Positions 6,679 to 34,200 of a stretch of 64,000 bases of DNA are shown here, piece by piece. Every line of letters begins with the position of its first letter. The stretch's first letter is position 1. The stretch is from a virus: IMG/VR virus record IMGVR_UViG_3300032954_000005, positions 13,249 to 77,248 of that record; one strand, 5' to 3'. The notes below the pieces were generated by a model. That model saw only the letters and a list, made by a program, of their open reading frames with translations, had not been told where the DNA came from and did no database searches. Position numbers and translations under genes: made by a program.

Positions 6679-8784
6679 GTGGCCAGGCGGTCCCCAGCAC
6701 CGAACGCTGCTCCCGACGTGCACGCGCTCGCGCGGAAAAAGCTCGCCGCCTCGGGGCTTGACGCGCGCGACGCGCGCCTCCTCAGGGTCGAGGCGTGCTC
6801 CGCTGATGTGCTCGACAGGCGCCTGAACGCCGCGCACGGGCGCGCCGGGCTCTGGCTTCCTTACTTCGAGCTCGACGGGAAGGTGAACTGCTTCGGGCGC
6901 GCGCGCTTTCTCGAGCCCCCGCCTGGGTTCGCGGGGCTCGTCGAGAAGCCCCAGAAGTACGCGCAGCGCGCGGGAACGACCAACCACTTCTACCTTCCGC
7001 CCTTCGCCGACTGGCGAAAGATCGCGAAGGACGTCGAGACCCCCGTCATCTTTACCGAGGGGGAGCTAAAGGCCGCCGCCGCGTCGAAGGCGCAGCTCCC
7101 GGCGATCGGGCTCGGGGGCGTGTACAGCTTTTTGTCGAAGGGCAGGCTTCTCGACGACTTCAAGTGGTTCGAGTGGCGGGGGCGCGCCGCCTACGTCGTG
7201 TTCGACTCCGACGCTGCGCTGAAACCCCAGGTGCTCCAGGCGGAGAACGCCCTCGCCGAGAAGCTTCTCGAGCTCGAGGCGCGCCCCTACGTCCTGCGCC
7301 TGCCGGGCGACCCTGACAACGAACAGGAAAAGGTCGGGCTCGACGACTACCTCGTCGTTCACGGGGCGGACCGTTTCTTCAAGCTCCTGACAGAGTCGTC
7401 GATCCTCTACGAGGGGGCGCGTGAGCTTTTTCAGCTGAACGCCGAGGTGCTGGTGATTCGCAACCCGGCCTGCGTCCTCGAGCTCGTGACCGACCACCGG
7501 CTCTCGGTGTACGAGTTTACGCGCCTGAACTACGCCAACCGGCGGTACCTGAAGCCCACGGGAAACGCGAAGAAGGGTGCGGCCCAGTACCAGGAGGTGT
7601 CCGCCCCCGACGCGTGGCTCCAGTGGCCGGGGCGCAGCGAGGTGCGAAACTGCGTGTACAAGCCCGGGGAGCAGCGCATCATCGGGCGATCGTTAAACCT
7701 GTGGCGCGGGTACGGGGTTGAGCCAAAGAAGGGAGATGTCGGGCCCTGGCGCGAGCTCCTCGACGTCCTGTTTTGCCCGGACGAGGCGGCGTCGCGCGAG
7801 TACTTCGAGCGGTGGCTCGCGTATCCGCTCCAGCACCCGGGGACGAAGCTGACGGTCGCCGTCATGGTCTGGGGCGCCGACACCGGGACGGGGAAGTCGA
7901 TGGTCGGCGAGACGATGAAGCGGATCTACGGTGCGAACTACGCGATGATCGGCTCCCAGCAGCTTCACTCCTCGTTCAACGAGTGGGCGGAGGCGAAGCA
8001 GTTCATCATGGTCGAGGAGCTCGAATCGTCGGAGAACAAGCGCTCGGTCGCCGACCGGTTTAAGACCATGATCACGCAGCGCGAGGTGCGGATCGAGCGC
8101 AAGTATATCTCGTCGTACGTCCTGCCCGACTACACCAACTACTACTTTACGTCGAACCACGCCGACAGCCTGTTCATCGAGGATAAGGACCGTCGTTACT
8201 TTATCCACGAGGCCTCGCAGCCGCCCGCCCCCGCGAAGTTTTATGACGCGTACGTGCGCTGGCTCGACGAGGAGGGCGCTGCCGCGCTCTTCGACTACCT
8301 TCTTCGGCTCGACCTGAAGGGGTTTAACCCGTTTGGGCACGCCCCCGAGACGCGCGCGAAGCTTGACATGCGCGACATCGGGCGCTCGGACCTCGCCGCC
8401 TGGGTCGCGACGCTGCGTGAGGCCCCGGAGACGGTGCTCACCGCGGCGGGTAAGCCCGCCGACTTTGACCTCTGGACGATCGAGGAGCTCCTGCAGGCGT
8501 ACGACCCGCTTGGCGCGTCGCGCGTGACCGTGAACGGGCTCGCCCGCGCGCTGCGCAAGGGCGGCTTTCGCAAGGTGTACGGCGGGAACATCCTGCCCGG
8601 CCTCGGGCGCCGGGTCTGGGCCATCCGCCACGAGGAGAAGTATGCGGCTCACGCCGGGTACCAGGAGCTGTACCGGGCGTACTGCGCGCCGCGCGGGATC
8701 CAGCCCGTGAACTTCAACACCGCGCGCGCGGCGCTGGCCGAGCAGCGGCGGCGTAAGCATGAGAGCGCGAGGGGAGAAAAGTGA
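6679..8784 (+). CDS. Primase-helicase (DUF3854-like Toprim domain plus D5/DUF5906-like P-loop)
   Basis: TEGELKA, GLGGV, FDSD and KVGLDDYL Toprim motifs; GADTGTGKS Walker A; FTSNH and DRRYF helicase motifs. Confidence 0.9.
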   Translation: MARRSPAPNAAPDVHALARKKLAASGLDARDARLLRVEACSADVLDRRLNAAHGRAGLWLPYFELDGKVNCFGRARFLEPPPGFAGLVEKPQKYAQRAGTTNHFYLPPFADWRKIAKDVETPVIFTEGELKAAAASKAQLPAIGLGGVYSFLSKGRLLDDFKWFEWRGRAAYVVFDSDAALKPQVLQAENALAEKLLELEARPYVLRLPGDPDNEQEKVGLDDYLVVHGADRFFKLLTESSILYEGARELFQLNAEVLVIRNPACVLELVTDHRLSVYEFTRLNYANRRYLKPTGNAKKGAAQYQEVSAPDAWLQWPGRSEVRNCVYKPGEQRIIGRSLNLWRGYGVEPKKGDVGPWRELLDVLFCPDEAASREYFERWLAYPLQHPGTKLTVAVMVWGADTGTGKSMVGETMKRIYGANYAMIGSQQLHSSFNEWAEAKQFIMVEELESSENKRSVADRFKTMITQREVRIERKYISSYVLPDYTNYYFTSNHADSLFIEDKDRRYFIHEASQPPAPAKFYDAYVRWLDEEGAAALFDYLLRLDLKGFNPFGHAPETRAKLDMRDIGRSDLAAWVATLREAPETVLTAAGKPADFDLWTIEELLQAYDPLGASRVTVNGLARALRKGGFRKVYGGNILPGLGRRVWAIRHEEKYAAHAGYQELYRAYCAPRGIQPVNFNTARAALAEQRRRKHESARGEK

Positions 8785-9201
8785 TGGACGATATCAGGGT
8801 AAACGTGGAAACGCGCGTAAGCCCTCTACCGGGGTGGGTGAATAAGCGGGTGCGGGTCGAGGGGCACTGGTTGGGTGACTTTGAGGGAACGCTCGCCGAG
8901 GCGGGGCGCGCGCTCGCGATCGTTCGCAACGGCGAGGGCGTGGCGCGTGAGGTGTGCTACCTTCGCGGGGTCACGTTCACCTTTCTCGAAAGGAGCATGC
9001 TATGATCAACGCCCTGGGCTACGTCATCAAGTGTCAGAACCGGATCGAGCTCGGGAACGGCGCGACGACGACCTGCACCCTCGACGAGGGGCACGCCGGC
9101 GCGTGCGCGCCCCCGCGCCCGCCCTGCGACCTCTGCCTCAGGCTCGTCGAGTACTGGCGGGAGCACGACGCGCGTGAGAAGAAGAAAATGGAGGCGCAAC
9201 C

Positions 9202-9747
9202 GTGAGGCCGCTTTTCGTATTGTTGCTGCTGGTGGGCTGCGCGACGGCCCAGGACGACGCTCCGCCGATGACCCGCCTAACGCTCTTTCCCAACGTTTTA
9301 CGTTCCCAGGGCACGAAGGAGCTGTACGTCAACGACGTTGACTGCTCAAAGGATTGGGCGTACTGCGAGGAGCAGCTAAAGAGCCTCATGGCTGCGCCTA
9401 CGCCCGCGGCGTCGCAGTGTTCCGCCGATATGCCTCATTGCGTGATTGGCGACCCGGCACCGTGGCTCTATGTGCCGCAGCAGTGGGATACCCCGTTCAC
9501 TTGTACCTATGTGCTCCAAACCCATACGTTTCAAGCCGACCTGAAGGCTCCCGCGCCTGAGCCGTTCGACGTGCCGGCGGTTGGACATCCTGACCCATGT
9601 GGGCCTAACCCCGCTCACAGGAACACAACTGCGGACTTTTGTAATTCAAGAACGCCGCTGTGGACTTGTGCCGACCCGCTCCGCATCCTGTTAACGAGCG
9701 AAGATGGCAAGCATCACTGCTATGCCTTTTGGATGGTGAAACCATGA
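9202..9747 (+). CDS. Cys-rich exported protein or lipoprotein
   Basis: MRPLFVLLLLVGC lipobox-like N-terminus; many cysteines. Confidence 0.6.
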   Translation: MRPLFVLLLLVGCATAQDDAPPMTRLTLFPNVLRSQGTKELYVNDVDCSKDWAYCEEQLKSLMAAPTPAASQCSADMPHCVIGDPAPWLYVPQQWDTPFTCTYVLQTHTFQADLKAPAPEPFDVPAVGHPDPCGPNPAHRNTTADFCNSRTPLWTCADPLRILLTSEDGKHHCYAFWMVKP

Positions 9748-10253
9748 AAACCGCTGTCTATGTTTTGGGGTTGTTACTTGCCTACCTGTATGTCATCAAC
9801 GGGCAAGCCTACATTGCGTACCTCTGGCCTTCTCGCTCAGGAGAATGGGACGCAGGAGTTACTTACAAAGTAGTCATAACTTACGTCGAGGGCGGTGAGC
9901 ATACTTTTGCCGCTACCAAGATTCGTCCGCCTTTTCGATTCGTGCCGAGGATGAAACCATGAGCGCCCTATTATGGCTTCTCTTCGGAATAGGATCAGGC
10001 CCGATGCCGCCTCCACCACAGGGACAACACCAAATCTTACTGATAGACAAAACTTTATTTTTTACTGCAGATGGGACATTAGTATCTCCGCTGCACAATG
10101 CTGCTTGCATGATGCGGCATATTACGCTTCCATCCACGTATCCCCAAACTCCACCAGTATCTTACATAGTGCTGACATGCAAAACAGCCAAAGCCGTTTG
10201 CCAAACACTATTAGGGCAGCCTTGCAGGTGGACTTATTATGCGGAGGTTCGCA

Positions 10254-19819: not shown

Positions 19820-20560
19820 GTGAAAGAAGAGGCTTGTCCGCACTACAGCACCGTTACAGCGCGTACGTGCCGCGTTATGTTCTTTGAGTGCCGCGGCGCC
19901 GGGTGCTACTACCGCGGGTGCGAGCCGTGCATCGAGGAGCACGAACGAACGTGCCCAGAGGTGCTATTAACGCGAAAGCGCGAGGCGCCCGCGAAGGATG
20001 ACGTATGAACGCGCCGAAGCGAACCCGCTTTCTTCATTCGCCCACGCCCGGCACGCTCCTGTTTGAGCCGGGGCTGACGGTGAACCTGACGCTCTTACCG
20101 CATCCACGCCCGGTGCTTGGGCTGCTGTTCTGCCGGCACCGCGACCGCGGGCACTTTACCTGGGTCAACGCGACAGCGCACTGGGCGGTGACGGGCGACT
20201 ACTGCCGCGCGTGCTTCCGCGTGCTGCGGTGGGAAAGGATCTACTGATGAGCGACGACCGCTACGTGTGGATGAATGCGCGCTACCGCGGCCGGTGCCAC
20301 GAGTGCAGGCGCGCGATCGCCACGGGCGAGCGCATGCTGTACGACGCCCTTGACCGCGTGGCGTACTGCGAGGAGCACGGCGAGGAGATCCAGCCAGGAG
20401 TGGTGAAATGACAGAAAAGCAATGGGCCTTACTTTGTAGGTTTATGCTCACCGCGCTGCGCTTAATCGCATTGACCGCGGCTAAGCTTGAGGTCGAGATC
20501 GCCCAAGACGTCAGAGGTGATTTTTACCGGCTAAAGGAAGACCTAACAAGCGAGCTGAGA
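19820..20560 (+). other. Small Cys-rich hypothetical genes
   Basis: ORFs 19820-20008, 20005-20247 and one ending at 20411. Confidence 0.45.
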
Positions 20561-22464
20561 TGAGCGCGCCCAAGGTCACGATCGTCGACTTCGAGACGGA
20601 GCGGATTCAGCCGCGGCCGCACTATCCTCCTAAGCCCGTGGGCGTGGCGCTGCGCTACCCCGGGCGGCGGGCGAAGTACCTGGCGTGGGGGCACTCGTCG
20701 GGGAACAACACGACGCGCGACGCGGCCGTGCGCGAGCTGCGCGACGTGTGGCACGGCGATCTTCTTTTTCAGCACGCGAAGTTCGACCTCGACGTGGCGG
20801 AGACCCACCTCGGGCTGCGCCCGCCGCCCTGGGACCGCGTTCACGATACGAAGTACCTTATCTTCTTCCGCGACCCGTACGCGCCGTCACTGTCGCTGAA
20901 GCCGAGCGCTGAGCGCCTCCTGGGCATCAAGCCCGAGGAGCGCGATCGCCTGCGGGAGTGGGTGCTCGGGCATGTGCCCGAGGCGCGCCGGAAGCCAACA
21001 GAGTGGGGCGCGTACATCGCGCGCGCCCCGGGGAACATCGTGGCGCCTTACGCGTGCCAGGATGTTGACGATACTGCAGCGCTGTTCGACCACCTGTGGC
21101 GTGAGGTGGTCGAGGGCTGGTCGATGCGTGAGGCGTACGACCGCGAGCGCCGGCTCATGCCGATCCTCCTTGAAAATGAGCGCGCGGGTGTGCGCGTCGA
21201 CCTCGACGCGATGCGGCGCGACCTCGTCGTTTATAAGAAGGCGCTCGAGACGGCGGACGCGTGGCTACGTAAACGCTTAGGCCTACCAAGGGACGCAAAC
21301 ATCGACAGCGACCCGCTGATGGCGCAGGCGTTCGTCAACGCGCGGGTCGTTACCGGCCTCAAGCGCACCGCGCCTACGAAGAAGTTTCCCGACGGGCAGC
21401 CGTCGGTGTCGGGAAAGAACCTCACGCCCGACATGTTCCTCGACCCGCAGGTGGCGTCGGCGTACGCATATCGCAATAAGCTGTCGACGTGCCTGGGGAC
21501 GTTTCTTGAGCCCTGGATCGAGCTGGCGCAGGAGTCGGCTGGCGACCCGCGCATACATACCTCGTGGAACCAGGTACGCGCGTCGGAGTCGGGTGGAAAG
21601 TCGTCGGAGGGCGCGCGCTCGGGCCGCATGTCGAACCAGCCCTCGCTGTCGAACGTTCCCGTGGACTGGTCGAAGGCGAAGGGAGAGGGGTACGTCCACC
21701 CTGGGTTCCTCAAGGTTCCAAAGCTTCCGCTCATGCGCGTCTACTTCCTGCCCGACCCCGGGGAGCGGTGGGGAAAGCGCGACTACAACGGGCAGGAGCT
21801 GCGCATCCTCGCCCACTACGAGGACGGGCCGCTCCTCGCGCGTTATCAGGCGAACCCGCTCGTCGACATCCACCAGGAGGTGCGGGAGGGGTTCATTCAG
21901 TACGCGAACGTCGACCGCCCCAGAAAGTCGGTAAAAAACGCGAACTTCGCCGACATCTACGGCGAGGGCATCGGCCAGCAGGCCACGACCCTGGGAATCA
22001 GCGTGGCGCAGATGCGTCTGCTGCGCCACATCAAGGACACGCAGCTCCTGCCCGGCGTGGCGTCGCTGCGCCACGAGCTGATGCGGATCTGGAAAACGGG
22101 CGGCGCGATTAGGACGCTGGGCGGGCGGGAGTACTACTGCGAGCCCGCGCGGTTCGTTAAAAAGCAGAACCGGGTGATGGACTTCGCGTACAAGGCGCTG
22201 AACTACCTCATCCAGCCCTCGGGGGCCGACATGATCAAGCAGTCGATCATCGACTATCATGAGCACCCGAAGAGAGAAGCGCGGTGGCTGCTCTCGGTCC
22301 ACGACGAGAACGACGCGTCGATGCCGCGGTCGAAGGCTGGGCACCGGGAGCAGCAGCGCGTCCTTGCCGAGGCGATGGAGGGCGCGTTTAAGCTCGACCT
22401 GAAGATTATTACGGACGGCGAGAGCGGGCCCAACTGGGCCAAGCTCGAAAAGTGGGAGGACTAG
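20560..22464 (+). CDS. polA: DNA polymerase family A with 3'-5' exonuclease
   Basis: Exo DFETE, HAKFD and YACQD; motif A DYNGQELRILAH, motif B RKSVKNANFADIYG, motif C VHDE. Confidence 0.95.
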   Translation: MSAPKVTIVDFETERIQPRPHYPPKPVGVALRYPGRRAKYLAWGHSSGNNTTRDAAVRELRDVWHGDLLFQHAKFDLDVAETHLGLRPPPWDRVHDTKYLIFFRDPYAPSLSLKPSAERLLGIKPEERDRLREWVLGHVPEARRKPTEWGAYIARAPGNIVAPYACQDVDDTAALFDHLWREVVEGWSMREAYDRERRLMPILLENERAGVRVDLDAMRRDLVVYKKALETADAWLRKRLGLPRDANIDSDPLMAQAFVNARVVTGLKRTAPTKKFPDGQPSVSGKNLTPDMFLDPQVASAYAYRNKLSTCLGTFLEPWIELAQESAGDPRIHTSWNQVRASESGGKSSEGARSGRMSNQPSLSNVPVDWSKAKGEGYVHPGFLKVPKLPLMRVYFLPDPGERWGKRDYNGQELRILAHYEDGPLLARYQANPLVDIHQEVREGFIQYANVDRPRKSVKNANFADIYGEGIGQQATTLGISVAQMRLLRHIKDTQLLPGVASLRHELMRIWKTGGAIRTLGGREYYCEPARFVKKQNRVMDFAYKALNYLIQPSGADMIKQSIIDYHEHPKREARWLLSVHDENDASMPRSKAGHREQQRVLAEAMEGAFKLDLKIITDGESGPNWAKLEKWED

Positions 22465-23716: not shown

Positions 23717-24030
23717 TGAAGCGAGAGTCGGCGATCGAGCAGAACATCGTCAGCTACTCCCTGGAGAGGTACCGCGTGGGGTCGATCAAGCTCAACGTGA
23801 TGTCGAACGCTGGTTACCCCGACCGCCTCTTCCTGTTCCCCAGGCGCCCGACGTGGCTGGAGATCAAGAAGCCCGGGGAGGAGCCGACGCCCCTCCAGTA
23901 CACGCGCCTCCAGGAGCTTGAACAGCTGGGCTACACGGCGGCGTGGGTCGACAACGAGGCGGATGGGCGCGCGTTCGTCGATCGCTGCGCGACGTTGGCG
24001 TTACGCAAGAGGAAAGATGCTAAACGATAA
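23704..24030 (+). CDS. VRR-NUC nuclease
   Basis: ESAIE...GYPDRL...WLEIKKPG..PTPLQ. Confidence 0.88.
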   Translation: MRFIMKRESAIEQNIVSYSLERYRVGSIKLNVMSNAGYPDRLFLFPRRPTWLEIKKPGEEPTPLQYTRLQELEQLGYTAAWVDNEADGRAFVDRCATLALRKRKDAKR

Positions 24031-25507
24031 CGGAGCAATTACGCCGCAGGAGTGGAGGCCGGAGCCCTACCAGGTGCACGGCGTGGAGTTCTTGGTCGGG
24101 CAGGGCGCCGCGGGCCTCTTCTTCCCGCCCGGCATGCGAAAGACGTCGGTCGTGCTCAAGGCCCTGAAGACGCTGCGCGACGCCGAGCAGGTCGGGTCGG
24201 CGCTGGTGGTCGCGCCGCGCCGCCCCTGCCACCTCGTGTGGCCGCGTGAGATCCAGAAGTGGCGTGAGTTCAACGACCTCACGTACGTCGTCCTTCATGG
24301 CCTGACCGAGAAGCAGCGCGGGCGCGCGCTCGAGGAGAAGGAGAGAAAAGATTTATACATCATCAATCCGGACGGGCTCCCCTGGCTCCTCAAGGACAAG
24401 CTGCGGCTCCGCCGGCTGGGGATCGACGTGCTAATTGTGGATGAAAGTAGTAAGTTTAAGCACGCGAACACGCAGCGCTTCAAGCTGGTGAAGCCGTTCC
24501 TTCCGCAGTTCAAGCGGCGCTACATCATGACGGGAACGCCCAACCCGAACGGGTACCTCGACCTTTTCGGGCAGATCTACCTCCTCGACCTGGGGGCGGC
24601 GCTGAGCCCGTACTACTCGCACTACCGCAACACCTACTTCTACTCGGTCGACAAGTTCGGCTGGAAGTGGAACCTGATGCCCGGCGCTGACCAGCTGATC
24701 CAGAGGCAGATCAAGCCGCTGATCCTCTGCCTCGACGACAAGGACTACATCAAGCTTCCGCGGTTCGTCGGGACGGCGGGCGACGCGACGGAGCACCAGA
24801 TTCGGGTGGAGCTCCCGCCCGACGCGCGTAGAATCTACGACCAGCTCGAGGAAGACATGATCGCGCGCGTGGGGGGCGAGACCGTGCTGGCGGTGAACGC
24901 GGGTGTCGTCACCCAGAAGTGCGCGCAGGTGGCGAATGGTGGCATCTACTACGATGAGGCGCCGGGGGCGGACCTGCGCGAGCGCGCGCCGCGCCGGACG
25001 GTGCAGCTGCACGACGCGAAGACCGAGGCGCTTCAGGAGCTGATCGACGAGCTGAACGGCGCGAGTCTTCTCGTGCTGTACGACTATCATCACGACCTGG
25101 AGCGGCTAGCAGCCGCGTTCTTTCCCAGGGTACCATTGAAGGACGTTCCCTACATCGGCGGGCAGGTGACTGACCGGCGCACCGCCGAGCTGTGCGACCG
25201 CTGGAACGCGAACCAGCTCCCGCTTCTTCTCGGTCACCCCGCGGCGATGGGGCACGGGCTGAATCTCCAGGACGGCGGGCAGCACATCTGCTGGTACTCG
25301 ATCCCGTGGGACCTCGAGCTGTACGATCAGACGAACCGCCGCGTCAGGCGTAGCGGGTCACGCCACGCGCGGGTGTTCGTTCACCACCTGGTGGCGGAGG
25401 CGACGGTGGACGTGGCGAAGATGGCGGCGCTGCGCCGCAAGGATAAGACCCAGCGCGGGCTCCTTGACGCGCTGCGGGAGTACATTGGCAAGAAGAAAGG
25501 ACGATGA
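24017..25507 (+). CDS. SNF2-family helicase
   Basis: PGMRKT, IVDESS, MTGTP, GHGLNLQ and QTNRRVRR motifs. Confidence 0.92.
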   Translation: MLNDNGAITPQEWRPEPYQVHGVEFLVGQGAAGLFFPPGMRKTSVVLKALKTLRDAEQVGSALVVAPRRPCHLVWPREIQKWREFNDLTYVVLHGLTEKQRGRALEEKERKDLYIINPDGLPWLLKDKLRLRRLGIDVLIVDESSKFKHANTQRFKLVKPFLPQFKRRYIMTGTPNPNGYLDLFGQIYLLDLGAALSPYYSHYRNTYFYSVDKFGWKWNLMPGADQLIQRQIKPLILCLDDKDYIKLPRFVGTAGDATEHQIRVELPPDARRIYDQLEEDMIARVGGETVLAVNAGVVTQKCAQVANGGIYYDEAPGADLRERAPRRTVQLHDAKTEALQELIDELNGASLLVLYDYHHDLERLAAAFFPRVPLKDVPYIGGQVTDRRTAELCDRWNANQLPLLLGHPAAMGHGLNLQDGGQHICWYSIPWDLELYDQTNRRVRRSGSRHARVFVHHLVAEATVDVAKMAALRRKDKTQRGLLDALREYIGKKKGR

Positions 25508-25863
25508 CGATGTCGGGTTTCGTGGTAGTAAAACTGCGGTGGCCCAGGTCGGTGCCGCTTGACCAGATTAGCGAGAAGTTCCTGCAGGGCATGCTCGACC
25601 GCATGGCGATGGGGTTCCACACCTATGGTCATGTTATGCGTGACGAGAATGTGCCCGACGCACTGGCGTCCCTCGACGTGCGGCTGAAGAAGTACCGCGT
25701 CACCGGGAACACTGAGTTCCTGATGGACTGCGCGAACTTCTGCATGATGGAGTTTATGCGCCCGTCGGTCGAGGACGCGTACTTCGAGCCGACAACGAAG
25801 CGGGAGAGTCCGGGCGCGGTTCTCCTCGACAAGCGGCGGGTGAAAGGCAAGGAGGACTACTAA
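25504..25863 (+). CDS. Hypothetical helical protein at the start of the modification cluster
   Basis: 119 aa, TGNTEFLMDCANFCMMEF; coupled to the helicase stop. Confidence 0.6.
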   Translation: MTMSGFVVVKLRWPRSVPLDQISEKFLQGMLDRMAMGFHTYGHVMRDENVPDALASLDVRLKKYRVTGNTEFLMDCANFCMMEFMRPSVEDAYFEPTTKRESPGAVLLDKRRVKGKEDY

Positions 25864-25996: not shown

Positions 25997-26761
25997 ATGA
26001 GGATTGGAATTATCGGAAACGGGGTTCTCGGGTCCACGCTTCACAGGTGGTTCCGTGAAAAATTTGTTGACGTTGCAGTCTACGACGCGAACCCTGAGCG
26101 GTCGCTGAATACGTTCGACGAGGTGGCGGCGGCCGACTGGGCGTTTATCTGCATCAACATCCTCGACAACTGCGCTTCGTTGGAGTCACGTTGGTCGCTG
26201 CTTAACTTGACGCGTGAGCTTTCGAGGGTGAAGACGATCGTTGTGCGCACGACGGTCGTTCCGGGAACAACCGACTTTCTTCGCACGCGGACGGGGTTGA
26301 CGATCCTGTTTTGGCCCGAGTTCCTGGTCGAGCGCGCGCCGTGGCGGTCGTTCTCCGAGCCTGCGCTTCAGGTCGTCGGCGCGGCGCGGGAGGACCTTGC
26401 AGTCGCCTATACGCTGCAGCGGATGGCGCCCGCCGCGAGCTGCTGCGCGCGCGTCGTTACGCCGCGCCAGGCGGAGATTCTAAAGCACGCGCTCAACGCG
26501 TGGCTCGCGACAAAGGTGAGCTTCTTTAACCAGCTCTACGACTACTTCGGCGACGACCTTGGGCCGGTGGTCGAGGCTCTGCGGCATGAGCCGCGCGTGG
26601 GCGCGACGCACATGGACCAATATCAGGACGGCTACCGCGGCTGGGGCGGCAAGTGCTTCACGAAGGACGTTCCTGCGCTCGCCGCGCTCACAAAGGGAAC
26701 GATCCTCGATGCGGTCGTAAAGTATAACGACGCGCTGATAAGGAAGGGAGAGAAGGGATGA
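25997..26761 (+). CDS. UDP-glucose/GDP-mannose dehydrogenase family protein lacking the C-terminal domain
   Basis: GNGVLG Rossmann motif, RTTVVPGTT, PEFL, AEILK...N.WLATKVSFFN and GWGGKCF.KD catalytic Cys. Confidence 0.9.
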   Translation: MRIGIIGNGVLGSTLHRWFREKFVDVAVYDANPERSLNTFDEVAAADWAFICINILDNCASLESRWSLLNLTRELSRVKTIVVRTTVVPGTTDFLRTRTGLTILFWPEFLVERAPWRSFSEPALQVVGAAREDLAVAYTLQRMAPAASCCARVVTPRQAEILKHALNAWLATKVSFFNQLYDYFGDDLGPVVEALRHEPRVGATHMDQYQDGYRGWGGKCFTKDVPALAALTKGTILDAVVKYNDALIRKGEKG

Positions 26762-27792
26762 GGATACTCCTAACGGGCTTCAACGCCCGCTCGACGGGCT
26801 CCAAGCTTCTGCGGATGACGTACGTATCGACCTCGGGCGCGCTCCTCCGCGGCCTCAGCGACCTCGGGCACGAGGTCGACATGCGCCCTCCCGTGTTCGG
26901 GGAAGACCTGTCGGCGTACGACCTCGCGCTCATCGCGCTCGCCCTCCTGGGGGCGCGCGGGACGTACCACCACGAGAAGTGCGCATGGGTCTTAAAGGCG
27001 ATGGCGGACCGCTGCGTCCTCTACTTCGACGACTGGTCGACGTACCTCCTCGCCTACGACATGGACTACCGCCTCAACGTGATCCGCGACAAGTACCTCA
27101 GGTGGCGCGGCTGGGAGAACCTCCCGAGGAACGTGCGCACGACGCTCGTCGAGGAGATGAACCGTATCATCTCTCCCTCCTGCCCGTGGCCGCTCCTTCT
27201 TCCGACGTTCGCGTGGGGCGACCACTCCCTGATCACAACAGCGCGCCCCGGGTTCGCGCTTCACCCGTCGCGGGTGTACACGCTCGACCCGACCTACCTC
27301 GCAGAGCTTCCCCCGGTTCCCGTTCCCGCTCCCGCGGCGCGGCGCGAGCACGCGTGGGTGCACGCGACCCTCCAGGACAACGACCGCTGGCTCGAACGCC
27401 AACAGTGCGGGTGGCCCGTGAAGCGCTTCGGGAACGTTCGCCTCGGTGACCCGTGCGTGGACGAAGAGATGGTCGTCAACGAGTACGCGCGCGCGTGGGG
27501 CATAACCTGCCCAGAGTATAAGATCTCCGGCTCCGGCTGGTGGCGCATGCGTTACCACTACGCGGCCGCACTGGGGTGTGTGATGCTGACGACGGGGGCC
27601 GACGCTCGAGCGCTGGGCGAGGCGTTTCAGTTCACCGCGCGTGACTACGAGGCGATGGCTCTGAAAAGGCTGCGGGAGGTCGCGCAAGCGCAGGGCGATC
27701 GCGTACGCGAAACGATGGACACGCGCAGGCAGGCGCTCGCGAAGCTCGCGCGCATGGTCGACGATAACGCACGGAAAAGGAGATCACGTTGA
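26758..27792 (+). CDS. GT-B glycosyltransferase, T4 beta-glucosyltransferase-like
   Basis: MRILLTG...LSDLGHEV...YDL N-terminus; WWRMRYHYAAALGCVML parallels the C-terminal motif of T4 BGT as I recall it; gene context. Confidence 0.65.
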   Translation: MRILLTGFNARSTGSKLLRMTYVSTSGALLRGLSDLGHEVDMRPPVFGEDLSAYDLALIALALLGARGTYHHEKCAWVLKAMADRCVLYFDDWSTYLLAYDMDYRLNVIRDKYLRWRGWENLPRNVRTTLVEEMNRIISPSCPWPLLLPTFAWGDHSLITTARPGFALHPSRVYTLDPTYLAELPPVPVPAPAARREHAWVHATLQDNDRWLERQQCGWPVKRFGNVRLGDPCVDEEMVVNEYARAWGITCPEYKISGSGWWRMRYHYAAALGCVMLTTGADARALGEAFQFTARDYEAMALKRLREVAQAQGDRVRETMDTRRQALAKLARMVDDNARKRRSR

Positions 27793-28892
27793 AGCCCGTA
27801 CTTTTAATCAACAGCTACGCCGGGTCGCTGAACATTGCGGCCCACGCCGTCGGGGCGAAGATCGTCGGCTCCTACGAGGACTGCGGGTTCGGGCTCAGCG
27901 CGCAACAGCTCAACTATCCGGGCCTCGACTACCGCGCGACGACCGCCGACTGGCCGCGGCGTCCTGACCTCGCGGGTTGCGTTGTGATCGCGCACCCGCC
28001 CTGCGCAGCGTTCTCCGTAATAAATAGTTCATACGGTAAAGATATTCGTGGAGTTAAAGCTAATAGCTTTCAGCCGCACAAGGTCGTGATGCGGTACGCG
28101 CTCGGCGCGGGTTGTGATGGGCTGGCGATCGAGTCGGTGCCGGGTGTGCTGCGCGCCGCGTCCGTGTACCTCGATTACGCGCGCCGCTACCGGTACAATG
28201 CGTTCTTCGTGAAGCTGAACTCCGTGACGTTCGGTTGTCCTCAGTGGCGCCCGCGTGTCTGGATTCTCTTCAGCCGCGAGCCCGCGCTCGCCGTGGAGTA
28301 CACGCCGAACGTTCAGCCGCTGTCAACCGTCATGCGCGTGAAGGGGACGCCCGACTTTAACACGATCTTTTACCAGAAGACGATCGCCGCCTTGGCGAAG
28401 ATCACGCGCGTGTCGGAGAACGAGGCCTACGAGACGCTCTACTCGGGCGAGCGCATCGCTACCGTTCGCAAAATTGTTCAAGATACATACGGAGAAAAAA
28501 TACATGAGCGTTGGCTTCAAGCGTGCGGAAGTTTTTTCGACATGCATTATCCGCGCGTTGTAAGCTCAGAACGTTGGGCGACGACGATCCTGCACAGCAC
28601 GTTCTTCGTCTGTCACGGGCGCCCGCTCTTCGTCGAGGAGTACGAGGGAATCATGGGGTTCCCGCGCGATTGGCGGTGGCCCGACAAGCTGCGGCGCAGC
28701 TACAAGCTTTACCTCTCAAAGGGCGTCTGCCCGCCCGTCGCGGCGTGGGTGCTGCGCGCTTTGGGCGAGGAACCCGCGCACCCGAACCTGCAGCTGCTTC
28801 CACGGCAGCTGTGCGACATCACCGTTACCCAGAAAGAGGCCGTCGAGCTTCTTACGCAGCAGCGAAGGAGAAAAAATGCGGGCGTTAAATAG
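27789..28892 (+). CDS. C5 cytosine DNA methyltransferase-like protein
   Basis: HPPCAAFS (motif IV), IESVPG (VI), PQWRPRVW (VIII), IMGFPRDW (IX), KGV.PPVA (X); motif I atypical (SYAGSL). Confidence 0.82.
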   Translation: MKPVLLINSYAGSLNIAAHAVGAKIVGSYEDCGFGLSAQQLNYPGLDYRATTADWPRRPDLAGCVVIAHPPCAAFSVINSSYGKDIRGVKANSFQPHKVVMRYALGAGCDGLAIESVPGVLRAASVYLDYARRYRYNAFFVKLNSVTFGCPQWRPRVWILFSREPALAVEYTPNVQPLSTVMRVKGTPDFNTIFYQKTIAALAKITRVSENEAYETLYSGERIATVRKIVQDTYGEKIHERWLQACGSFFDMHYPRVVSSERWATTILHSTFFVCHGRPLFVEEYEGIMGFPRDWRWPDKLRRSYKLYLSKGVCPPVAAWVLRALGEEPAHPNLQLLPRQLCDITVTQKEAVELLTQQRRRKNAGVK

Positions 28893-29805
28893 GGTCGTCA
28901 TCGTTGAGGGGCCAGACGGCGCGGGCAAGACCACGCTGTGCCGTGAGCTGAAGGAGCGCTACCGCGAGTGGGGAGCGTCCGTCGCCCCGATCATGGAGCA
29001 CGAGGGCGTGCCCGCGGCGGGCGTCGACCCGTTCACCAGCTATACGGAGAAGCTCCTGCGCTACCTGACGGCGCGCGTCCCGCGCGTCCTCGACCGCTTC
29101 CACCTCGGGGAAACGGTCTACGGCCCGATCTGCCGCGGCGAATCGAAGCTGGGCGCCTACGGCGTGCGCCTTCTCGACCGCCTCTGCGCGGCGTACGGCG
29201 TCGCGATCATCGTCGCGCTTCCCGCGCGCGCGACGTGCGTCGCGAACTGGCGCCTGAAGGATGACTACGTCAAGACGGAGGCGACGTTCAGTGCGGTCTA
29301 TGACGCCTACGTGTCCTTAAAATTTCGCTACCTAGCCTACGACTACGAACGCGAGGGTAGCCTGACGGATCTCTTCGAGTATCTAAATAAGCCGCGGCCG
29401 ACGCTTCCGCTGGGGGCGGCGGGGAGCCCCGCCGCGCGCGTCCTCCTCGTGGGCGAGCGCCCGAATGGGGCGCTTGACCTGCCGTTCCACGCGCTCACGA
29501 ACAGCTCACGCTATCTAAACGACGCCCTCGAGCGGGCGGGGCTCCCTGAGTACGCGCTCGCCCTGGCCAACGCGCGCCGCTGGGACAACCAGCCGTTCGA
29601 CCTGCACGCGTTGGCCGCGCAGCTACCGAACCTGCGGCTCGTCGTTCCACTGGGAAACGTCGCGGCGCGCGCCGTTCACGCGCTGGCGCACAACGGGGTC
29701 GACGTTCTCCCGCTTCCCCACCCGCAGCACTGGAAGCGGTTTCACGCGCGGGAGGCTGAGGCCTATGTTCAAATGCTCAAGGAGGTGAAGCGTGTCGCGC
29801 TTTAA
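28876..29805 (+). CDS. dNMP kinase fused to a uracil-DNA-glycosylase-like domain
   Basis: VEGPDGAGKTT P-loop and DRFHLGE.VYG; C-terminal half LLVGERPN...LGNVA...LPHPQHW. Confidence 0.8.
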   Translation: MRALNRVVIVEGPDGAGKTTLCRELKERYREWGASVAPIMEHEGVPAAGVDPFTSYTEKLLRYLTARVPRVLDRFHLGETVYGPICRGESKLGAYGVRLLDRLCAAYGVAIIVALPARATCVANWRLKDDYVKTEATFSAVYDAYVSLKFRYLAYDYEREGSLTDLFEYLNKPRPTLPLGAAGSPAARVLLVGERPNGALDLPFHALTNSSRYLNDALERAGLPEYALALANARRWDNQPFDLHALAAQLPNLRLVVPLGNVAARAVHALAHNGVDVLPLPHPQHWKRFHAREAEAYVQMLKEVKRVAL

Positions 29806-30646
29806 CCAGGTCAGTGAAACGTTTGGGCAGGCGTGGTACAACCTCGTTGACCACATCGTCTACGAGGGGAAGGTCACGTGCCCCCGCGGGCTCGAGACGC
29901 GTGAGACGACGGCCGTGTCCCTGACCGTGACAAACGCCCTTCAAAACGTGCTCGTCGACCCGACGCGCAACCTGAACTACAGGTTCATGGTCGCCGAGTG
30001 GCTGTGGATCACCGCGGGGCGCGCAGACGTCGCCTCGATCGCCGCGTTCAACAAGGAGGTCGCGAAGTTCTCGGATGACGGCATAACGTTCGCGGGAGCC
30101 TACGGGCCGCGGCTCCTTCCTCAGTGGCCGTGGCTCCTGTCGCTTCTTCGGCGCGAGCCCGACACGCGCCAGGCGGTGGCGACGATCTTCACGCCCACGC
30201 CCGCGTCGTCGCGCGACGTCCCCTGTACGCTCTCCCTCCAGCTCTTGCGGCGCGACGCGCGCCTCCACGCGATCGTCACGATGCGCAGCAGTGACGTGTG
30301 GCTGGGGCTCCCCTACGACTTCTTTAACTTTTCGATGCTCCTCGCGTCGTGCGCCGCGGCGCTCGAAATCGACGTGGGCGCGTTGACCTTTAACCTCGGG
30401 TCGTCGCACCTGTACGCGGCGAACCTCGACGCGGCGCGCGAGGTGCTGCGGAGGCAGGAGACGACGACCCTCCCGTCGCCGCGGCTTCCGCGGTACGTGA
30501 CGGCGACCGCGGCGGAGGTGACCCTCCTGGACGTGGACCTCGTCAACGGCCTGAGCGCGGAGCGCCTGCCCGTTTATTACGACGCGCTCCACGTCGCGAA
30601 AACCCGCCGGGAGGCGCTGGAGGTGCTGCGTGCCGCGCGAAAGTAA
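29792..30646 (+). CDS. Thymidylate-synthase homolog, likely dCMP (hydroxy)methylase
   Basis: YGPR, DTRQAV, DVPCT catalytic Cys, MRSSDVWLGLPYD with Asp at the TS Asn specificity position, SSHLY. Confidence 0.85.
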   Translation: MSRFNQVSETFGQAWYNLVDHIVYEGKVTCPRGLETRETTAVSLTVTNALQNVLVDPTRNLNYRFMVAEWLWITAGRADVASIAAFNKEVAKFSDDGITFAGAYGPRLLPQWPWLLSLLRREPDTRQAVATIFTPTPASSRDVPCTLSLQLLRRDARLHAIVTMRSSDVWLGLPYDFFNFSMLLASCAAALEIDVGALTFNLGSSHLYAANLDAAREVLRRQETTTLPSPRLPRYVTATAAEVTLLDVDLVNGLSAERLPVYYDALHVAKTRREALEVLRAARK

Positions 30647-31094
30647 AAACGCGTACTACCTCGCGATGCTCGCGCTCGTCGCGACGCGCGGCACGTGCCC
30701 GCGGCGGCGGGTGGCGGCGATCCTCACCGACGCGGAGGGGCGCGTCCTCGCAACCGGGTACAACGGGCCCCCGCCCGGATACCCGCACTGTATCGACGAC
30801 CCGTGCCCGGGGGCAAGGGACGCGGCGGGGGACACGTCGCGCTGCGTCGCCATCCACGCCGAGCAGAACGCGATCGTCCAGGCGGGGCTGGGCGGAAACC
30901 TGGCGCGGGCGCGGCACCTGTACACGTCGGCGTCGCCGTGCTTCTCGTGCTGTAAGCTGCTGTGCGCGCTTCCCGCGCTGTGGGAGATCTACGCGCTCGA
31001 CCTGTACCCCGACGCCGCGGGCCTCGACCTGCTGCGGCGCAGGAGAATTAAGCTTTTCGTTAAGACCAACGACGGCCTAAAGGAGATCTTATGA
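30630..31094 (+). CDS. dCMP deaminase family protein
   Basis: TC.RR.V, GYNG, HAEQNA and SPCFSC. Confidence 0.92.
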   Translation: MPRESKNAYYLAMLALVATRGTCPRRRVAAILTDAEGRVLATGYNGPPPGYPHCIDDPCPGARDAAGDTSRCVAIHAEQNAIVQAGLGGNLARARHLYTSASPCFSCCKLLCALPALWEIYALDLYPDAAGLDLLRRRRIKLFVKTNDGLKEIL

Positions 31095-31678
31095 ACGACG
31101 ACTACACCGCGTGGGAGCTGGTACGCGCGTTCCACCTGCGGTACGGCCACGCTGCGCCCGACGCGCTGACCGCTCTTTCGCCCGAGGTGCGGCTTCTTCG
31201 GCAGCGCCTAATTTTGGAAGAGCTCGGCGAGCTCGCGGTCGCCGTTCACCAGCGCGACCTCATCAAGATCGCCGACGCGGGGTGTGACCTCGCGTACGTC
31301 CTTCACGGGACGGCGGTCGCCGCGGGCAAGCTCTCGCGCTCGATGTGGACGTATGACCCGGTAAAGAGCGCGATCGAGCGGCCGTCGCTCACGCGGGTCG
31401 CGCTGAGCGCCGCGACGTGCTGCGCGAAGCTCGACACCGACGGCGTCGCGTACTACGTGGAGGCGGCCGTCCTCGACGTGGGGCTGCTGCTGCGGAGTCT
31501 TCGGATTCCGTTCGAGGCGTGTTTTCGCGAAGTGCACGCGTCGAACATGACGAAGGCCGTTCCCAGCGCGACGAAGCCCGGTGAGAAGTACGGCGACGGC
31601 GAGAAGACTGGGAAGGGCGCGACGTTCGTCCCGCCTGACCTGCGCGCGATTCTTCGCGACGCGGGACTTACAGTTTAG
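31091..31678 (+). CDS. MazG-like (PRA-PH type) NTP pyrophosphohydrolase
   Basis: LILEELGEL...DAGCDLAYV..G...FREVHASNMTK...PPDL. Confidence 0.85.
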   Translation: MNDDYTAWELVRAFHLRYGHAAPDALTALSPEVRLLRQRLILEELGELAVAVHQRDLIKIADAGCDLAYVLHGTAVAAGKLSRSMWTYDPVKSAIERPSLTRVALSAATCCAKLDTDGVAYYVEAAVLDVGLLLRSLRIPFEACFREVHASNMTKAVPSATKPGEKYGDGEKTGKGATFVPPDLRAILRDAGLTV

Positions 31679-32568: not shown

Positions 32569-32676
32569 CGCAGAGGACGACGATCGCCACGCGATCGTCG
32601 TAATGCGGCGCGCCGGTTCCAAGCCCGGCGGGTTCGTATAATAACGATGCGACGCGGCGCACGTACCGCAGAGGAG
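32569..32676 (+). ncRNA. Structured intergenic element copy 2
   Basis: CGCAGAGGA CGACGATCGC cac GCGATCGTCG TAATGCG; CGCCGG TTCCAAGC CCGGCG; module C present. Confidence 0.75.
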
Positions 32677-32682
32677 AGCAAG

Positions 32683-34200
32683 ATGAACACAACGCAGTTC
32701 AGTCCGCTTCAGCAGCGCATCTTCAAGTTCGTCGCGGAGGAAACCGGGAACGCATCGATCGAGGCGGTCGCCGGGTCAGGCAAGACGACCACGATCGTGG
32801 CCGCCGCGTCGTACCTTCCGCCAACGTCGCGCAACCTCTTTCTGGCGTTCAACAAGTCGATCGCCGAGGAGCTCGCGACACGCCTTCCCGCGCACGTCAC
32901 GGCGAAGACGTTGAACAGCCTTGGGCACGGCGCGTGGGCCGCAAAGCTCCGCCCAGCCCGCCTAAAGCTCGACGCCAACAAGACGCGCGCCATCCTCGAT
33001 AAGCGCGTCGTCGAGGCAGACAGAAAGCTGTACGGCTCCCTGGTGACGCGCCTCGTTGCGCTGGCGAAGTCCGCGGGCCTCGCACCCGCGGGTGCCCCAA
33101 ACGCATATCCCCTGGTGGACGACACCCTCGATGCGTGGCTCGACATGATCGAGTACCACGACCTGGAGGTGCCCGAGGAGGGAAACGTCAACCGCGCGAT
33201 CGACCTGGCGCGCAAGGTGCTCAGCGAGTCGATTCGGCAGGCGTTTCTTGGCTGCATCGACTTTGACGATCAGATCTACATGACGGTGGTCTACCGCGCT
33301 CCGATGAGCAGGTTTGACTTCGTGTTTGTCGATGAGGCGCAGGACCTTAACTGCATCCAGCACCAGCTGATTGCGATGGCAATCAAGTCGGGCGGTCGGC
33401 TCATCGCGGTGGGGGACCCCCGCCAGGCAATCTACGGCTTTCGTGGGGCGGATGCGTCGAGCATGGAAAACCTGCAGCGGCGCTTTCGCACAGTAACGCT
33501 TCCGCTGTCGATCAGCTACCGCTGCCCACAGGCCGTGGTCCGCGAGGCGCAGAAGCTGGTTTCGCACATTCAGTCAAGCGAGACGGCGCCCGTCGGGGTT
33601 GTTGAAACGCTTGACGCGTACAACGCCGATACGTTTAACGACAGCGACGCAATCGTGTGCCGCAACGCGCGACCCCTGGTCGCGCTCGCCTTCCAGCTGA
33701 TTCGCGCCGGGCGTGGCTGCCGCGTCCTTGGGCGGGACATTGGCCAGGGCCTTCAGGCGCTCATAAAGAAGATGAACGCGGCCGACGTTGACGCGCTCGA
33801 GACCAAGCTTGACGCCTACCTCGACCGTGAAACGCGCCGCCTGCTCGCGAAGAACCAGGACGCGAAGGTCGCGGCGCTCGAGGACAAGGTCGACACCATC
33901 CGCCTGTTTATCGACCAGCTGGGCGAGGACGAGCGGACGATCGACGCGCTGTTTGGGAAGATCGACGCACTGTTCACCGACAACGGCCACGGAAAGCTTA
34001 CGCTGTGCACCGTCCACAAGGCGAAGGGCCTCGAGTGGGAGCGCGTGTTCATCCTCGACGCGCACCTCATGCCGTCGAAGTACGCGCGACAGGATTGGCA
34101 GCTGGCGCAGGAGACGAACATCCACTACGTGGCGATCACTCGCGCGAAGCGCGAGCTGCGCTACATCGACAGCGAAGGATTCAAAGCTAAGAAGCAGTAA
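32683..34200 (+). CDS. UvrD/Rep-like SF1 helicase
   Basis: AVAGSGKTTT, VDEAQD, VGDPRQAIYGFRGA, SYRCP, TVHKAKGLE and YVAITRA. Confidence 0.95.
   Translation: MNTTQFSPLQQRIFKFVAEETGNASIEAVAGSGKTTTIVAAASYLPPTSRNLFLAFNKSIAEELATRLPAHVTAKTLNSLGHGAWAAKLRPARLKLDANKTRAILDKRVVEADRKLYGSLVTRLVALAKSAGLAPAGAPNAYPLVDDTLDAWLDMIEYHDLEVPEEGNVNRAIDLARKVLSESIRQAFLGCIDFDDQIYMTVVYRAPMSRFDFVFVDEAQDLNCIQHQLIAMAIKSGGRLIAVGDPRQAIYGFRGADASSMENLQRRFRTVTLPLSISYRCPQAVVREAQKLVSHIQSSETAPVGVVETLDAYNADTFNDSDAIVCRNARPLVALAFQLIRAGRGCRVLGRDIGQGLQALIKKMNAADVDALETKLDAYLDRETRRLLAKNQDAKVAALEDKVDTIRLFIDQLGEDERTIDALFGKIDALFTDNGHGKLTLCTVHKAKGLEWERVFILDAHLMPSKYARQDWQLAQETNIHYVAITRAKRELRYIDSEGFKAKKQ

Follow-up and report, generated by a model that had tools for sequence, protein, structure and literature searches.

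A candidate operon for two-layer cytosine hypermodification, with a putative uronic-acid tailoring step, in an IMG/VR virus genome

Phage DNA hypermodifications decide whether a genome can be attacked by restriction enzymes, CRISPR nucleases and type IV systems, and biotechnology draws DNA-modifying enzymes from them. The 5-hydroxymethylcytosine (5hmC) pathway of phage T4 comprises gp42, the gp1 kinase, the gp56 dCTPase, the cd deaminase and the beta-glucosyltransferase BGT. Acidic sugars on phage bases have been described as well: hexuronic-acid-5hmC (433 u) was obtained when MT/TET/GT clusters of metagenomic phages were expressed in E. coli (bioRxiv 10.1101/2023.12.21.572611), and Bacillus phage SP-15, which encodes the UDP-glucose dehydrogenase (UGDH) gp146, carries glucuronolactone on dihydroxypentyl-uracil (PMC5977210). 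A further phage, Stenotrophomonas phage AXL3, has DNA that withstood every one of the 35 restriction enzymes tested with G or C in their site and was cut by TasI and Tru1I only, whose sites are pure A/T (AATT and TTAA) (PMC7504290). Here, we analyze a stretch of 64,000 nucleotides (the window) that corresponds to bases 13249-77248 of the 77,248-bp IMG/VR virus record IMGVR_UViG_3300032954_000005, rated 100% complete, and describe a seven-gene operon within it that may build and decorate a modified cytosine. A previous reading of the letters alone (hereafter the sequence-only reading) had presented the end product as an unusual new base. This overstated its novelty, since hexuronyl-5hmC, reached by a TET route, and the SP-15 combination of a UGDH with glucuronolactone were already reported; our literature search found no published glucuronyl-5hmC beyond the 2023 preprint.

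Seven plus-strand open reading frames (ORFs) span 25997-31678 of the window (Table 1), all of them contiguous and placed as the sequence-only reading had them. Neighboring ORFs overlap by 4-17 bp, and no internal promoter or terminator signal between the seven genes rises above shuffled expectation, which together argue for one translationally coupled operon. Pfam and PHROG searches support six of the seven domain assignments; the glycosyltransferase (GT) needed fold analysis. We determined domain identities, active-site residues, folds, gene order and conservation; the reactions of all the enzymes, DNA as the acceptor and the nature of the sugar are what we infer from these.

We propose that the operon encodes a two-layer cytosine hypermodification pathway, in which a T4-like pre-replicative core would be followed by post-replicative sugar tailoring; for the scheme as a whole, uronic acid included, we see the chances as evenly balanced. 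The thymidylate synthase (TS) homolog would convert dCMP to 5hm-dCMP, which the Tmk-like kinase domain would raise to the diphosphate and a host NDP kinase to 5hm-dCTP. Meanwhile, the MazG-like enzyme would hydrolyze the competing dCTP and dUTP, and the dCMP deaminase would turn dCMP to dUMP for host dTMP synthesis. The phage polymerase PolA would build 5hmC DNA, with a uracil-DNA glycosylase (UDG)-like domain fused to the kinase removing uracil-type bases (U or 5-hydroxymethyluracil, 5hmU). A BGT-like enzyme of the GT-B fold would then move a sugar from a UDP-sugar onto the 5-CH2OH group, and the translationally coupled short-form UGDH would supply UDP-glucuronate from host UDP-glucose. The predicted end base is 5-(hexuronosyl-oxymethyl)cytosine, for which a nucleoside mass of 433 u would be expected.

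Evidence for the pre-replicative core begins with the TS homolog. This protein matches PF00303 (E 1.5e-21, 77 bits), and its best PDB match is the CMP 5-hydroxymethylase MilA (E 2.5e-23). We aligned it with T4 gp42, SPO1 gp29 and five phage relatives, then with 15 homologs from related contigs. The catalytic cysteine (Cys145, ThyA C146) is invariant. Three residues before it, Asp142 occupies the ThyA L143 column, as an Asp does in MilA, T4 gp42 and SPO1 gp29; Asp168 retains ThyA D169, where 5-hydroxy-dCMP synthases of the RB69 gp48 type have Asn; and Asp176 falls in the ThyA N177 column. According to experimentally tested rules, dCMP specificity comes from N177D, products are hydroxymethylated and not methylated where the residue at L143 is acidic, an effect linked to water access, and D169N marks 5-hydroxy-dCMP synthases (PMC13326640). 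Asp176, Asp142 and the retained Asp168 therefore fit a 5hm-dCMP synthase and not a 5-hydroxycytosine synthase. The sequence-only reading had singled out the Asp of a GLPYD motif; the motif is present at residues 172-176, its Asp aligns with Asp179 of T4 gp42 where SPO1 gp29 has Asn, and Asp stands in this column in 15 of 15 cassette-linked TS homologs from related contigs. Pre-replicative synthesis of hm-dCTP, which it had deduced, is likewise our best reading of this full dCMP-hydroxymethylase signature, and that a C5-modified cytosine is made via the TS homolog seems very probable.

Variation around this signature was seen in the cassette-linked TS homologs of three related loci (L091, L114 and L107): the N177 column still has Asp, and the Asp of the L143 column is replaced by Tyr, Ala or Asn. 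Judged by these residues, their product at C5 might not be hydroxymethyl but, for instance, methyl. The "thymidylate synthase" of Gordonia phage GMA2 proved unrelated to the window protein, and GMA2 was therefore rejected as a relative of the cassette.

The genes flanking the TS homolog are consistent with such a core. The kinase half of the fusion protein matches the thymidylate kinase family phrog_761 (E 4e-12) and the UDG-like half matches PF03167 (33 bits, cut-off 24.3), both in one protein as the sequence-only reading had claimed. Its P-loop EGPDGxGK and D73-R74, the Tmk-type Asp-Arg, are invariant across all ten aligned homologs, and on these residues the kinase half fits a nucleotide-monophosphate kinase for modified dCMP. 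The UDG-like half keeps G193-E/D194 (motif A), the stacking F204, the base-reading N232 and H282-P283 (motif B) in 10 homologs; because these hallmark residues are conserved, it is most likely an active uracil-type glycosylase serving U or 5hmU repair. Its closest PDB family is that of the family-4/UDGX chains, a weak match (E 0.16), and residues 170-309 of the fusion contain no cysteine, so the domain lacks the four-Cys Fe-S cluster of family-4 UDGs. We considered the fusion as an analog of 5-HMUDK/aGPT-Pplase and rejected the idea: the aGPT-Pplase fold is helix-hairpin-helix rather than UDG, and the kinase carries the Tmk-type DR motif. The dCMP deaminase (PF00383, E 4e-16; phrog_174, E 2e-31) has its HAE and PCxxC zinc motifs, and the MazG-like pyrophosphatase matches PF01503 (MazG/PRA-PH, E 1e-9) and phrog_671 (E 2e-23), so that both assignments hold; the latter protein also weakly matches the Deinococcus MazG-like protein DR2231 (E 4.5e-4).

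The same genes travel together in related viruses. Through the family of the C5-cytosine-methyltransferase (C5-MTase)-like protein we fetched 25 IMG/VR loci, 22 of them with enough flanking sequence; these MTase-anchored loci and GenBank phages also served to sample the context of the GT family. In 17 of the 22, the C5-MTase-like gene is followed by a Tmk-like kinase and/or a TS homolog. The usual order, from MTase-like through kinase, TS and dCMP deaminase to a more distant MazG, is identical to that of the window. All 17 cassette loci have the kinase, which carries a UDG-like C-terminal domain in ten and stands without it in seven, a distribution that also speaks against the aGPT-Pplase analogy. 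The dehydrogenase and GT pair, by comparison, is accessory to this core cassette.

The closest relative, L090, illustrates the difference between core and accessory genes. At the amino-acid level it is 80% identical to the window phage in PolA, 79% in the SNF2 helicase, 72% in the TS homolog and 66% in the kinase-UDG fusion. In its slot between an ORF of 117-119 aa and the MTase-like gene (L090:8477-10001), a ThyX and a class I S-adenosylmethionine (SAM) methyltransferase replace the UGDH and the GT, and a second class I methyltransferase lies between the deaminase and MazG (L090:13144-14121). This gene set hints at another derivative of the same base, perhaps a methylated one; no ThyX was found in the genome of the window phage. 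The slot of the window is bordered in the same way: a 119-aa ORF without a family match (25504-25863) lies directly upstream of the operon, and its L090 counterpart, 64% identical, occupies the same position at the edge of the variable slot. Three other relatives have, next to the cassette, a GT of the window family followed by a radical-SAM/SPASM protein (L099:14519-15736, L101:12513-13460 and L111:13825-14841), a pairing that points to further tailoring chemistry on the modified cytosine or on its sugar. Taken together, gene order and content describe what appears to be a cytosine-replacement core that stays constant beside a tailoring slot that varies.

Relatives of the core are also found outside this sample. 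AXL3 and PW916, both cultured, and the metagenomic MW202621 encode a kinase-UDG fusion, a TS homolog with the Asp, a dCMP deaminase and a nucleoside triphosphate pyrophosphohydrolase (NTP-PPase) in the same order, together with a class I methyltransferase. The restriction pattern of AXL3 DNA thus offers separate experimental evidence for a change to cytosine (or guanine), not thymine, by the core module. It bears on the possibility that the TS homolog acts on dUMP from the dCMP deaminase, so that the base would be a 5hmU derivative as in SPO1, M6 or ViI. The adjacent deaminase gene and an overall identity of ~33% between the TS homolog and the dUMP hydroxymethylase SPO1 gp29 speak for it. Nevertheless, we hold it to be highly unlikely, given Asp176 at the specificity position, shared with T4 gp42 and not with SPO1 gp29, and given that AXL3 DNA yields to enzymes with A/T sites and not to those with G/C in their sites. 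T4, too, has a gene for a dCMP deaminase.

The first gene of the conserved order is the C5-MTase-like gene, a core member of the cassette rather than an accessory one, which the sequence-only reading had labeled and left unexplained. The label is sound: PF00145 matches with 33 bits (cut-off 22), over model positions 64-322 only. Across a family of 188 matches, catalytic motifs IV, VI and VIII are present and invariant as HPPCAAFS (Cys72), ESV (Glu115; Asn to Ser) and QWRPR (Arg154/156), and an equally invariant NSYAGSL replaces FxGxGG, the motif I that forms the AdoMet-binding loop. The family profile aligns to M.HhaI at E 6e-11, starting at G12/G22, and extending this alignment by register places Asn at F18 and Tyr at G20. 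From these residues, the catalytic half appears to be intact and the cofactor half rebuilt.

The C5-MTase fold is the tightest-linked partner of the kinase-TS pair, although in 5hmC DNA one would expect C5 to be occupied already. It may methylate residual cytosines or process 5hmC itself. A more specific version, which we regard as rather doubtful, is that it acts on 5hmC in DNA by Cys attack on C6, with the rebuilt pocket (NSYAGSL; PCQ to PCA) activating or exchanging the 5-hydroxymethyl group; the protein would then do for cytosine what the aGPT-Pplase2 amino-acid:DNA transferase does in thymidine hypermodification, and its variable neighbors (GT and UGDH in the window; SAM methyltransferases, radical-SAM enzymes or a Galp mutase in relatives) would tailor the product. 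At 5hmC, C5-MTases can carry out exchange reactions in vitro, and engineered M.HhaI gains a wider pocket from a change of Gln to Ala in motif IV; we treat both as leads, not as evidence. As a separate observation, the window protein (27789-28892) is 49% identical to its L090 counterpart (L090:9890-11101) and MazG 48%, with operon neighbors at 66-80%; this greater divergence could reflect adaptation to different tailoring genes.

The sugar layer begins with the GT. Pfam gave no match for the window GT or for 60 homologs, PF09198 included, and the family profile matched no PDB sequence. A single-protein scan of viral contigs with the GT found nothing and a word-based homolog search returned one relative only; an exhaustive HMMER search recovered 553 representative homologs. 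An AlphaFold2 model built from the family alignment (pLDDT 95.6, pTM 0.92) shows a complete GT-B fold, with two Rossmann domains in a compact ~350 aa. Its top match in a VIA structural search of 48,161 chains is T4 BGT (1c3j; Z 17.4, root-mean-square deviation [rmsd] 3.6 over 288 of the 344 residues). The selenosugar synthase SenB ties with it (Z 17.3), and the T4 alpha-glucosyltransferase AGT scores 16.1; BGT also gives the highest Foldseek TM-score (0.60). The nearest clusters in a protein-language-model atlas (Atlas) are all viral, and one of them is 100% PF09198 (T4-Gluco-transf). As modeled, the GT is thus a GT-B enzyme that resembles BGT in size and shape, and by sequence it falls outside the BGT family. 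The "BGT-like" label of the sequence-only reading is borne out by fold and by language-model features, and it finds no counterpart in sequence matches to BGT, Pfam or the PDB.

Genomic context ties this enzyme to the cassette. The GT start codon region overlaps the dehydrogenase stop by 4 bp, and the same GT family adjoins the cassette in L099, L101, L107 and L111 as well as in Actinomycetia phage DSL-LC01, where the gene after the GT encodes a UDP-galactopyranose mutase. The window phage has no second GT of this family in its genome. From operon coupling and recurrence beside the cassette we infer that 5hmC DNA is the acceptor, and glycosylation of a C5-modified cytosine seems likely.

The gene upstream of the GT encodes the short-form dehydrogenase. 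It matches PF00984 (the UDPG_MGDP_dh central domain; E 6.7e-12, 45.8 bits), with part of the NAD domain also matched, and phrog_9148 (E 1e-28, profile positions 1-276 of 382). All catalytic residues of UDP-glucose dehydrogenases are retained. The protein has Asn167, and its GxGxxG (G7/G9/G12), PEF-E108, K163 and GGKCFTKD with Cys220, Lys223 and Asp224 do not vary within the family. UDP-glucose dehydrogenases give the family profile its best match (E 1e-38), ahead of GDP-mannose dehydrogenase (7e-32) and UDP-ManNAc dehydrogenase (1e-21), and the model (pLDDT 94.6) fits onto residues 1-292 of Cj1441, a UGDH of Campylobacter (Z 22.6, rmsd 2.8, 245 aligned).

Such short forms are common in viruses. 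A single-protein scan of viral contigs with the UGDH-like protein gave no match; at least 569 IMG/VR stretches encode short forms, and we sampled 80 viral loci (L005-L084), whose ORFs are mostly 261-300 aa. The commonest neighbor, directly upstream in 41 of the 80, is an NAD-dependent sugar epimerase/dehydratase (SDR), which argues that the short forms use nucleotide sugars. Also near the short UGDH are a group-1 glycosyltransferase (GT1) in 14 loci, a dCMP deaminase in 12 and a TS homolog in 4. The genome of the window phage has no SDR sugar enzyme. The epimerase-UGDH pair usually sits among T4-like replication genes (primase, UvsX, DnaB-like helicase, family-B polymerase), as in L049, where the epimerase gene at 9103-10002 is followed by a UGDH-like gene starting at 10001, and in Phage C48C1 (L115:5327-7227). 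Outside viruses, Patescibacteria (candidate-phyla-radiation) proteins P0049-P0058 are short UGDH-like proteins of ~356 aa with a LexA-type DNA-binding domain (PF01726), an unexpected partner domain in sugar dehydrogenases.

A number of points tell against the proposed pathway, and they bear on the sugar donor, on the acceptor and on the scheme as a whole. On the donor side, the dehydrogenase lacks the C-terminal UDP-binding domain PF03720, which is present in every characterized family member, its chain ending 30 residues past the catalytic motif, and our literature search found no assay of any short UGDH. Relatives of 250-290 aa lack PF03720 as well and those above 400 aa have it, so the missing domain is not a truncation artifact. 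We also rejected a UGDH domain hidden in the GT N terminus or lost by frameshift, in view of the 4-bp overlap, the complete GT-B model and the normal length of ~250-290 aa. For a protein of 254 aa that lacks PF03720, the claim of the sequence-only reading that a UDP-sugar dehydrogenase makes a uronic donor is plausible from the catalytic residues and the short-form neighborhoods; whether the sugar of the modified base is a uronic acid we consider a toss-up.

The same gap in the dehydrogenase opens two other accounts. One is that the sugar is a neutral hexose (glucosyl-5hmC, 419 u) from host UDP-glucose, with the short UGDH oxidizing the C6-OH of the DNA-bound sugar to a carboxylate or playing an unrelated role: recognition of a free UDP-sugar is not assured in a protein devoid of the UDP-binding domain, and GT relatives stand beside the cassette without any UGDH in L099, L101, L107 and L111, which indicates a GT independent of UGDH. 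This is unlikely in our view, because the epimerase/dehydratase neighbors of the short forms indicate nucleotide-sugar substrates and because a conserved DPR-IG segment and the catalytic set match UGDH; moreover, we know of no dehydrogenase acting on a DNA-bound sugar. The other account has the UGDH-like enzyme oxidizing the hydroxymethyl of 5hm-dCMP, or of 5hmC in DNA, to 5-formyl- or 5-carboxy-cytosine. The UGDH family performs four-electron oxidation of a primary alcohol via a Cys thioester, the UDP-binding domain is lost, and dCMP deaminase genes lie close to some short forms. Still, the GT would lose its hydroxyl acceptor, the dominant neighbor is an NDP-sugar SDR with TS homologs in very few loci, and the reaction is without precedent, all of which make it extremely unlikely.

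On the acceptor side, non-DNA glycosyltransferases lie within 1 Z unit of the BGT match, so that the DNA acceptor of the GT is deduced from context alone. The GT and the UGDH-like enzyme might instead add sugar to a virion protein or alter a glycan on the host surface, the base being plain 5hmC or the product of the MTase-like protein. Many non-DNA transferases among the GT-B matches at nearly the same Z, the accessory nature of the UGDH and GT pair, both absent from the close relative L090, and the presence of short UGDH genes in many phages without known DNA glycosylation would all fit. We nevertheless think this improbable: both genes are translationally coupled to nucleotide-modification genes in a replication rather than a structural module, the GT family recurs beside the same cassette, the slot in relatives holds putative base-tailoring SAM methyltransferases and radical-SAM enzymes, and the language-model neighbors of the GT are all viral and include the T4-Gluco-transf cluster.

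As for the two-layer scheme as a whole, this GT family occurs in none of the 80 short-UGDH loci and a short UGDH with the GT in none of the 25 cassette loci, so far leaving the pairing to this phage alone. The pathway assigns no step to the strictly conserved C5-MTase-like gene, which implies that the true product may be more elaborate. The clearance of dCTP and dUTP by the MazG-like enzyme is likewise a prediction.

The operon lies in a plus-strand replication module, not in the structural module (Table 1), of a genome whose window is ~63% GC and for which the GenBank phage collection holds no near-identical DNA.

Table 1. Genes of the candidate operon and of the surrounding replication module (positions in the window).
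Feature	Position	Strand	Basis or remark
Short-form UDP-glucose-dehydrogenase-like NAD enzyme, 254 aa	25997..26761	+	PF00984, phrog_9148
GT-B fold glycosyltransferase, viral family without a name, 344 aa; predicted DNA (5hmC) glycosyltransferase	26758..27792	+	model
C5-cytosine-methyltransferase-fold protein with apparently rebuilt cofactor half, 367 aa	27789..28892	+	PF00145
Fusion of Tmk-like nucleotide kinase (~1-165) and UDG-superfamily domain (~175-309)	28876..29805	+	phrog_761, PF03167
Thymidylate-synthase homolog, predicted dCMP 5-hydroxymethylase, 284 aa	29792..30646	+	PF00303
dCMP deaminase, 154 aa	30630..31094	+	PF00383, phrog_174
MazG-like all-alpha NTP pyrophosphohydrolase, 195 aa	31091..31678	+	PF01503, phrog_671
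Primase	6679-8784	+	replication module (Pfam/PHROG)
Family-A DNA polymerase PolA	20560-22464	+	phrog_17, E 1e-66; upstream of operon
Exonuclease and SNF2 helicase	23918-25507 (SNF2 helicase)	+	replication module
UvrD-like helicase	32647-34200	+	replication module

If the proposed pathway is true, it would be the first pre-replicative, TS-based way of placing an acidic sugar on 5hmC in which the phage itself encodes an enzyme for making the donor. It would also assign a biochemical function to two protein families: the large viral one of BGT-like GT-B enzymes, for which Pfam has no model, and the short UGDHs without a UDP-binding domain, which are widespread in marine T4-like phages. A cytosine-replacement cassette with a variable tailoring slot could, in addition, guide mining for new DNA bases.

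Compared with the systems described so far, the operon resembles the T4 pathway, with which it shares a TS homolog with Asp at N177, a kinase, a pyrophosphatase, a deaminase and a BGT-like GT-B enzyme. It departs from T4 in a kinase that is Tmk-like and fused to a UDG-like domain, in a GT without sequence similarity to BGT, and in the added UGDH-like and C5-MTase-like genes; the phage itself differs in its PolA-based replication module, its 77-kb genome and its GC content of 63%. The arrangement is also reminiscent of the glycosylated 5-hydroxycytosine clusters of RB69, DLP3 and RL38JI (PMC13326640), where a Tmk-like kinase, a GT and a TS homolog stand side by side and the phage synthesizes its own UDP-sugar donor; the UDP-galactopyranose mutase beside the GT relative of DSL-LC01 is the same donor enzyme as in RL38JI. 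The TS homologs of those clusters, however, are D169N and make 5-hydroxy-dCMP, whereas the window protein keeps Asp168, which predicts hydroxymethyl; its donor enzyme is UGDH-like and not an arabinose or galactofuranose enzyme, and the GT family is different.

The predicted end product, 5hmC to which a phage GT has attached a uronic acid, is the one reported for the MT/TET/GT clusters. There, a C5-MTase and a TET enzyme make 5hmC after replication, and the donor is drawn from host supplies or formed by an epimerase, whereas the window phage would take the TS route with an encoded dehydrogenase; a search for TET/JBP dioxygenases across its whole 77-kb genome gave no PF12851 match at E <= 1. SP-15 likewise combines a phage gene of the UGDH family with a uronic acid on a hypermodified pyrimidine, but its base is a uracil derivative with a phosphodiester linkage, and the window dehydrogenase aligns with its enzyme over residues 101-245 only (28.5% identity). 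Stenotrophomonas phage AXL3 and Pseudoxanthomonas phage PW916 share with the window the kinase-UDG fusion (28% identity), the TS homolog with Asp (41%), the dCMP deaminase and the NTP-PPase, in the same order; in these phages a class I SAM methyltransferase replaces the C5-MTase-like, UGDH and GT genes. Set against all of these, what is new here is a TS-based route to a putative uronic-acid base, a BGT-like GT family without a name, a family of short UGDHs, and a cassette that includes an MTase-fold protein.

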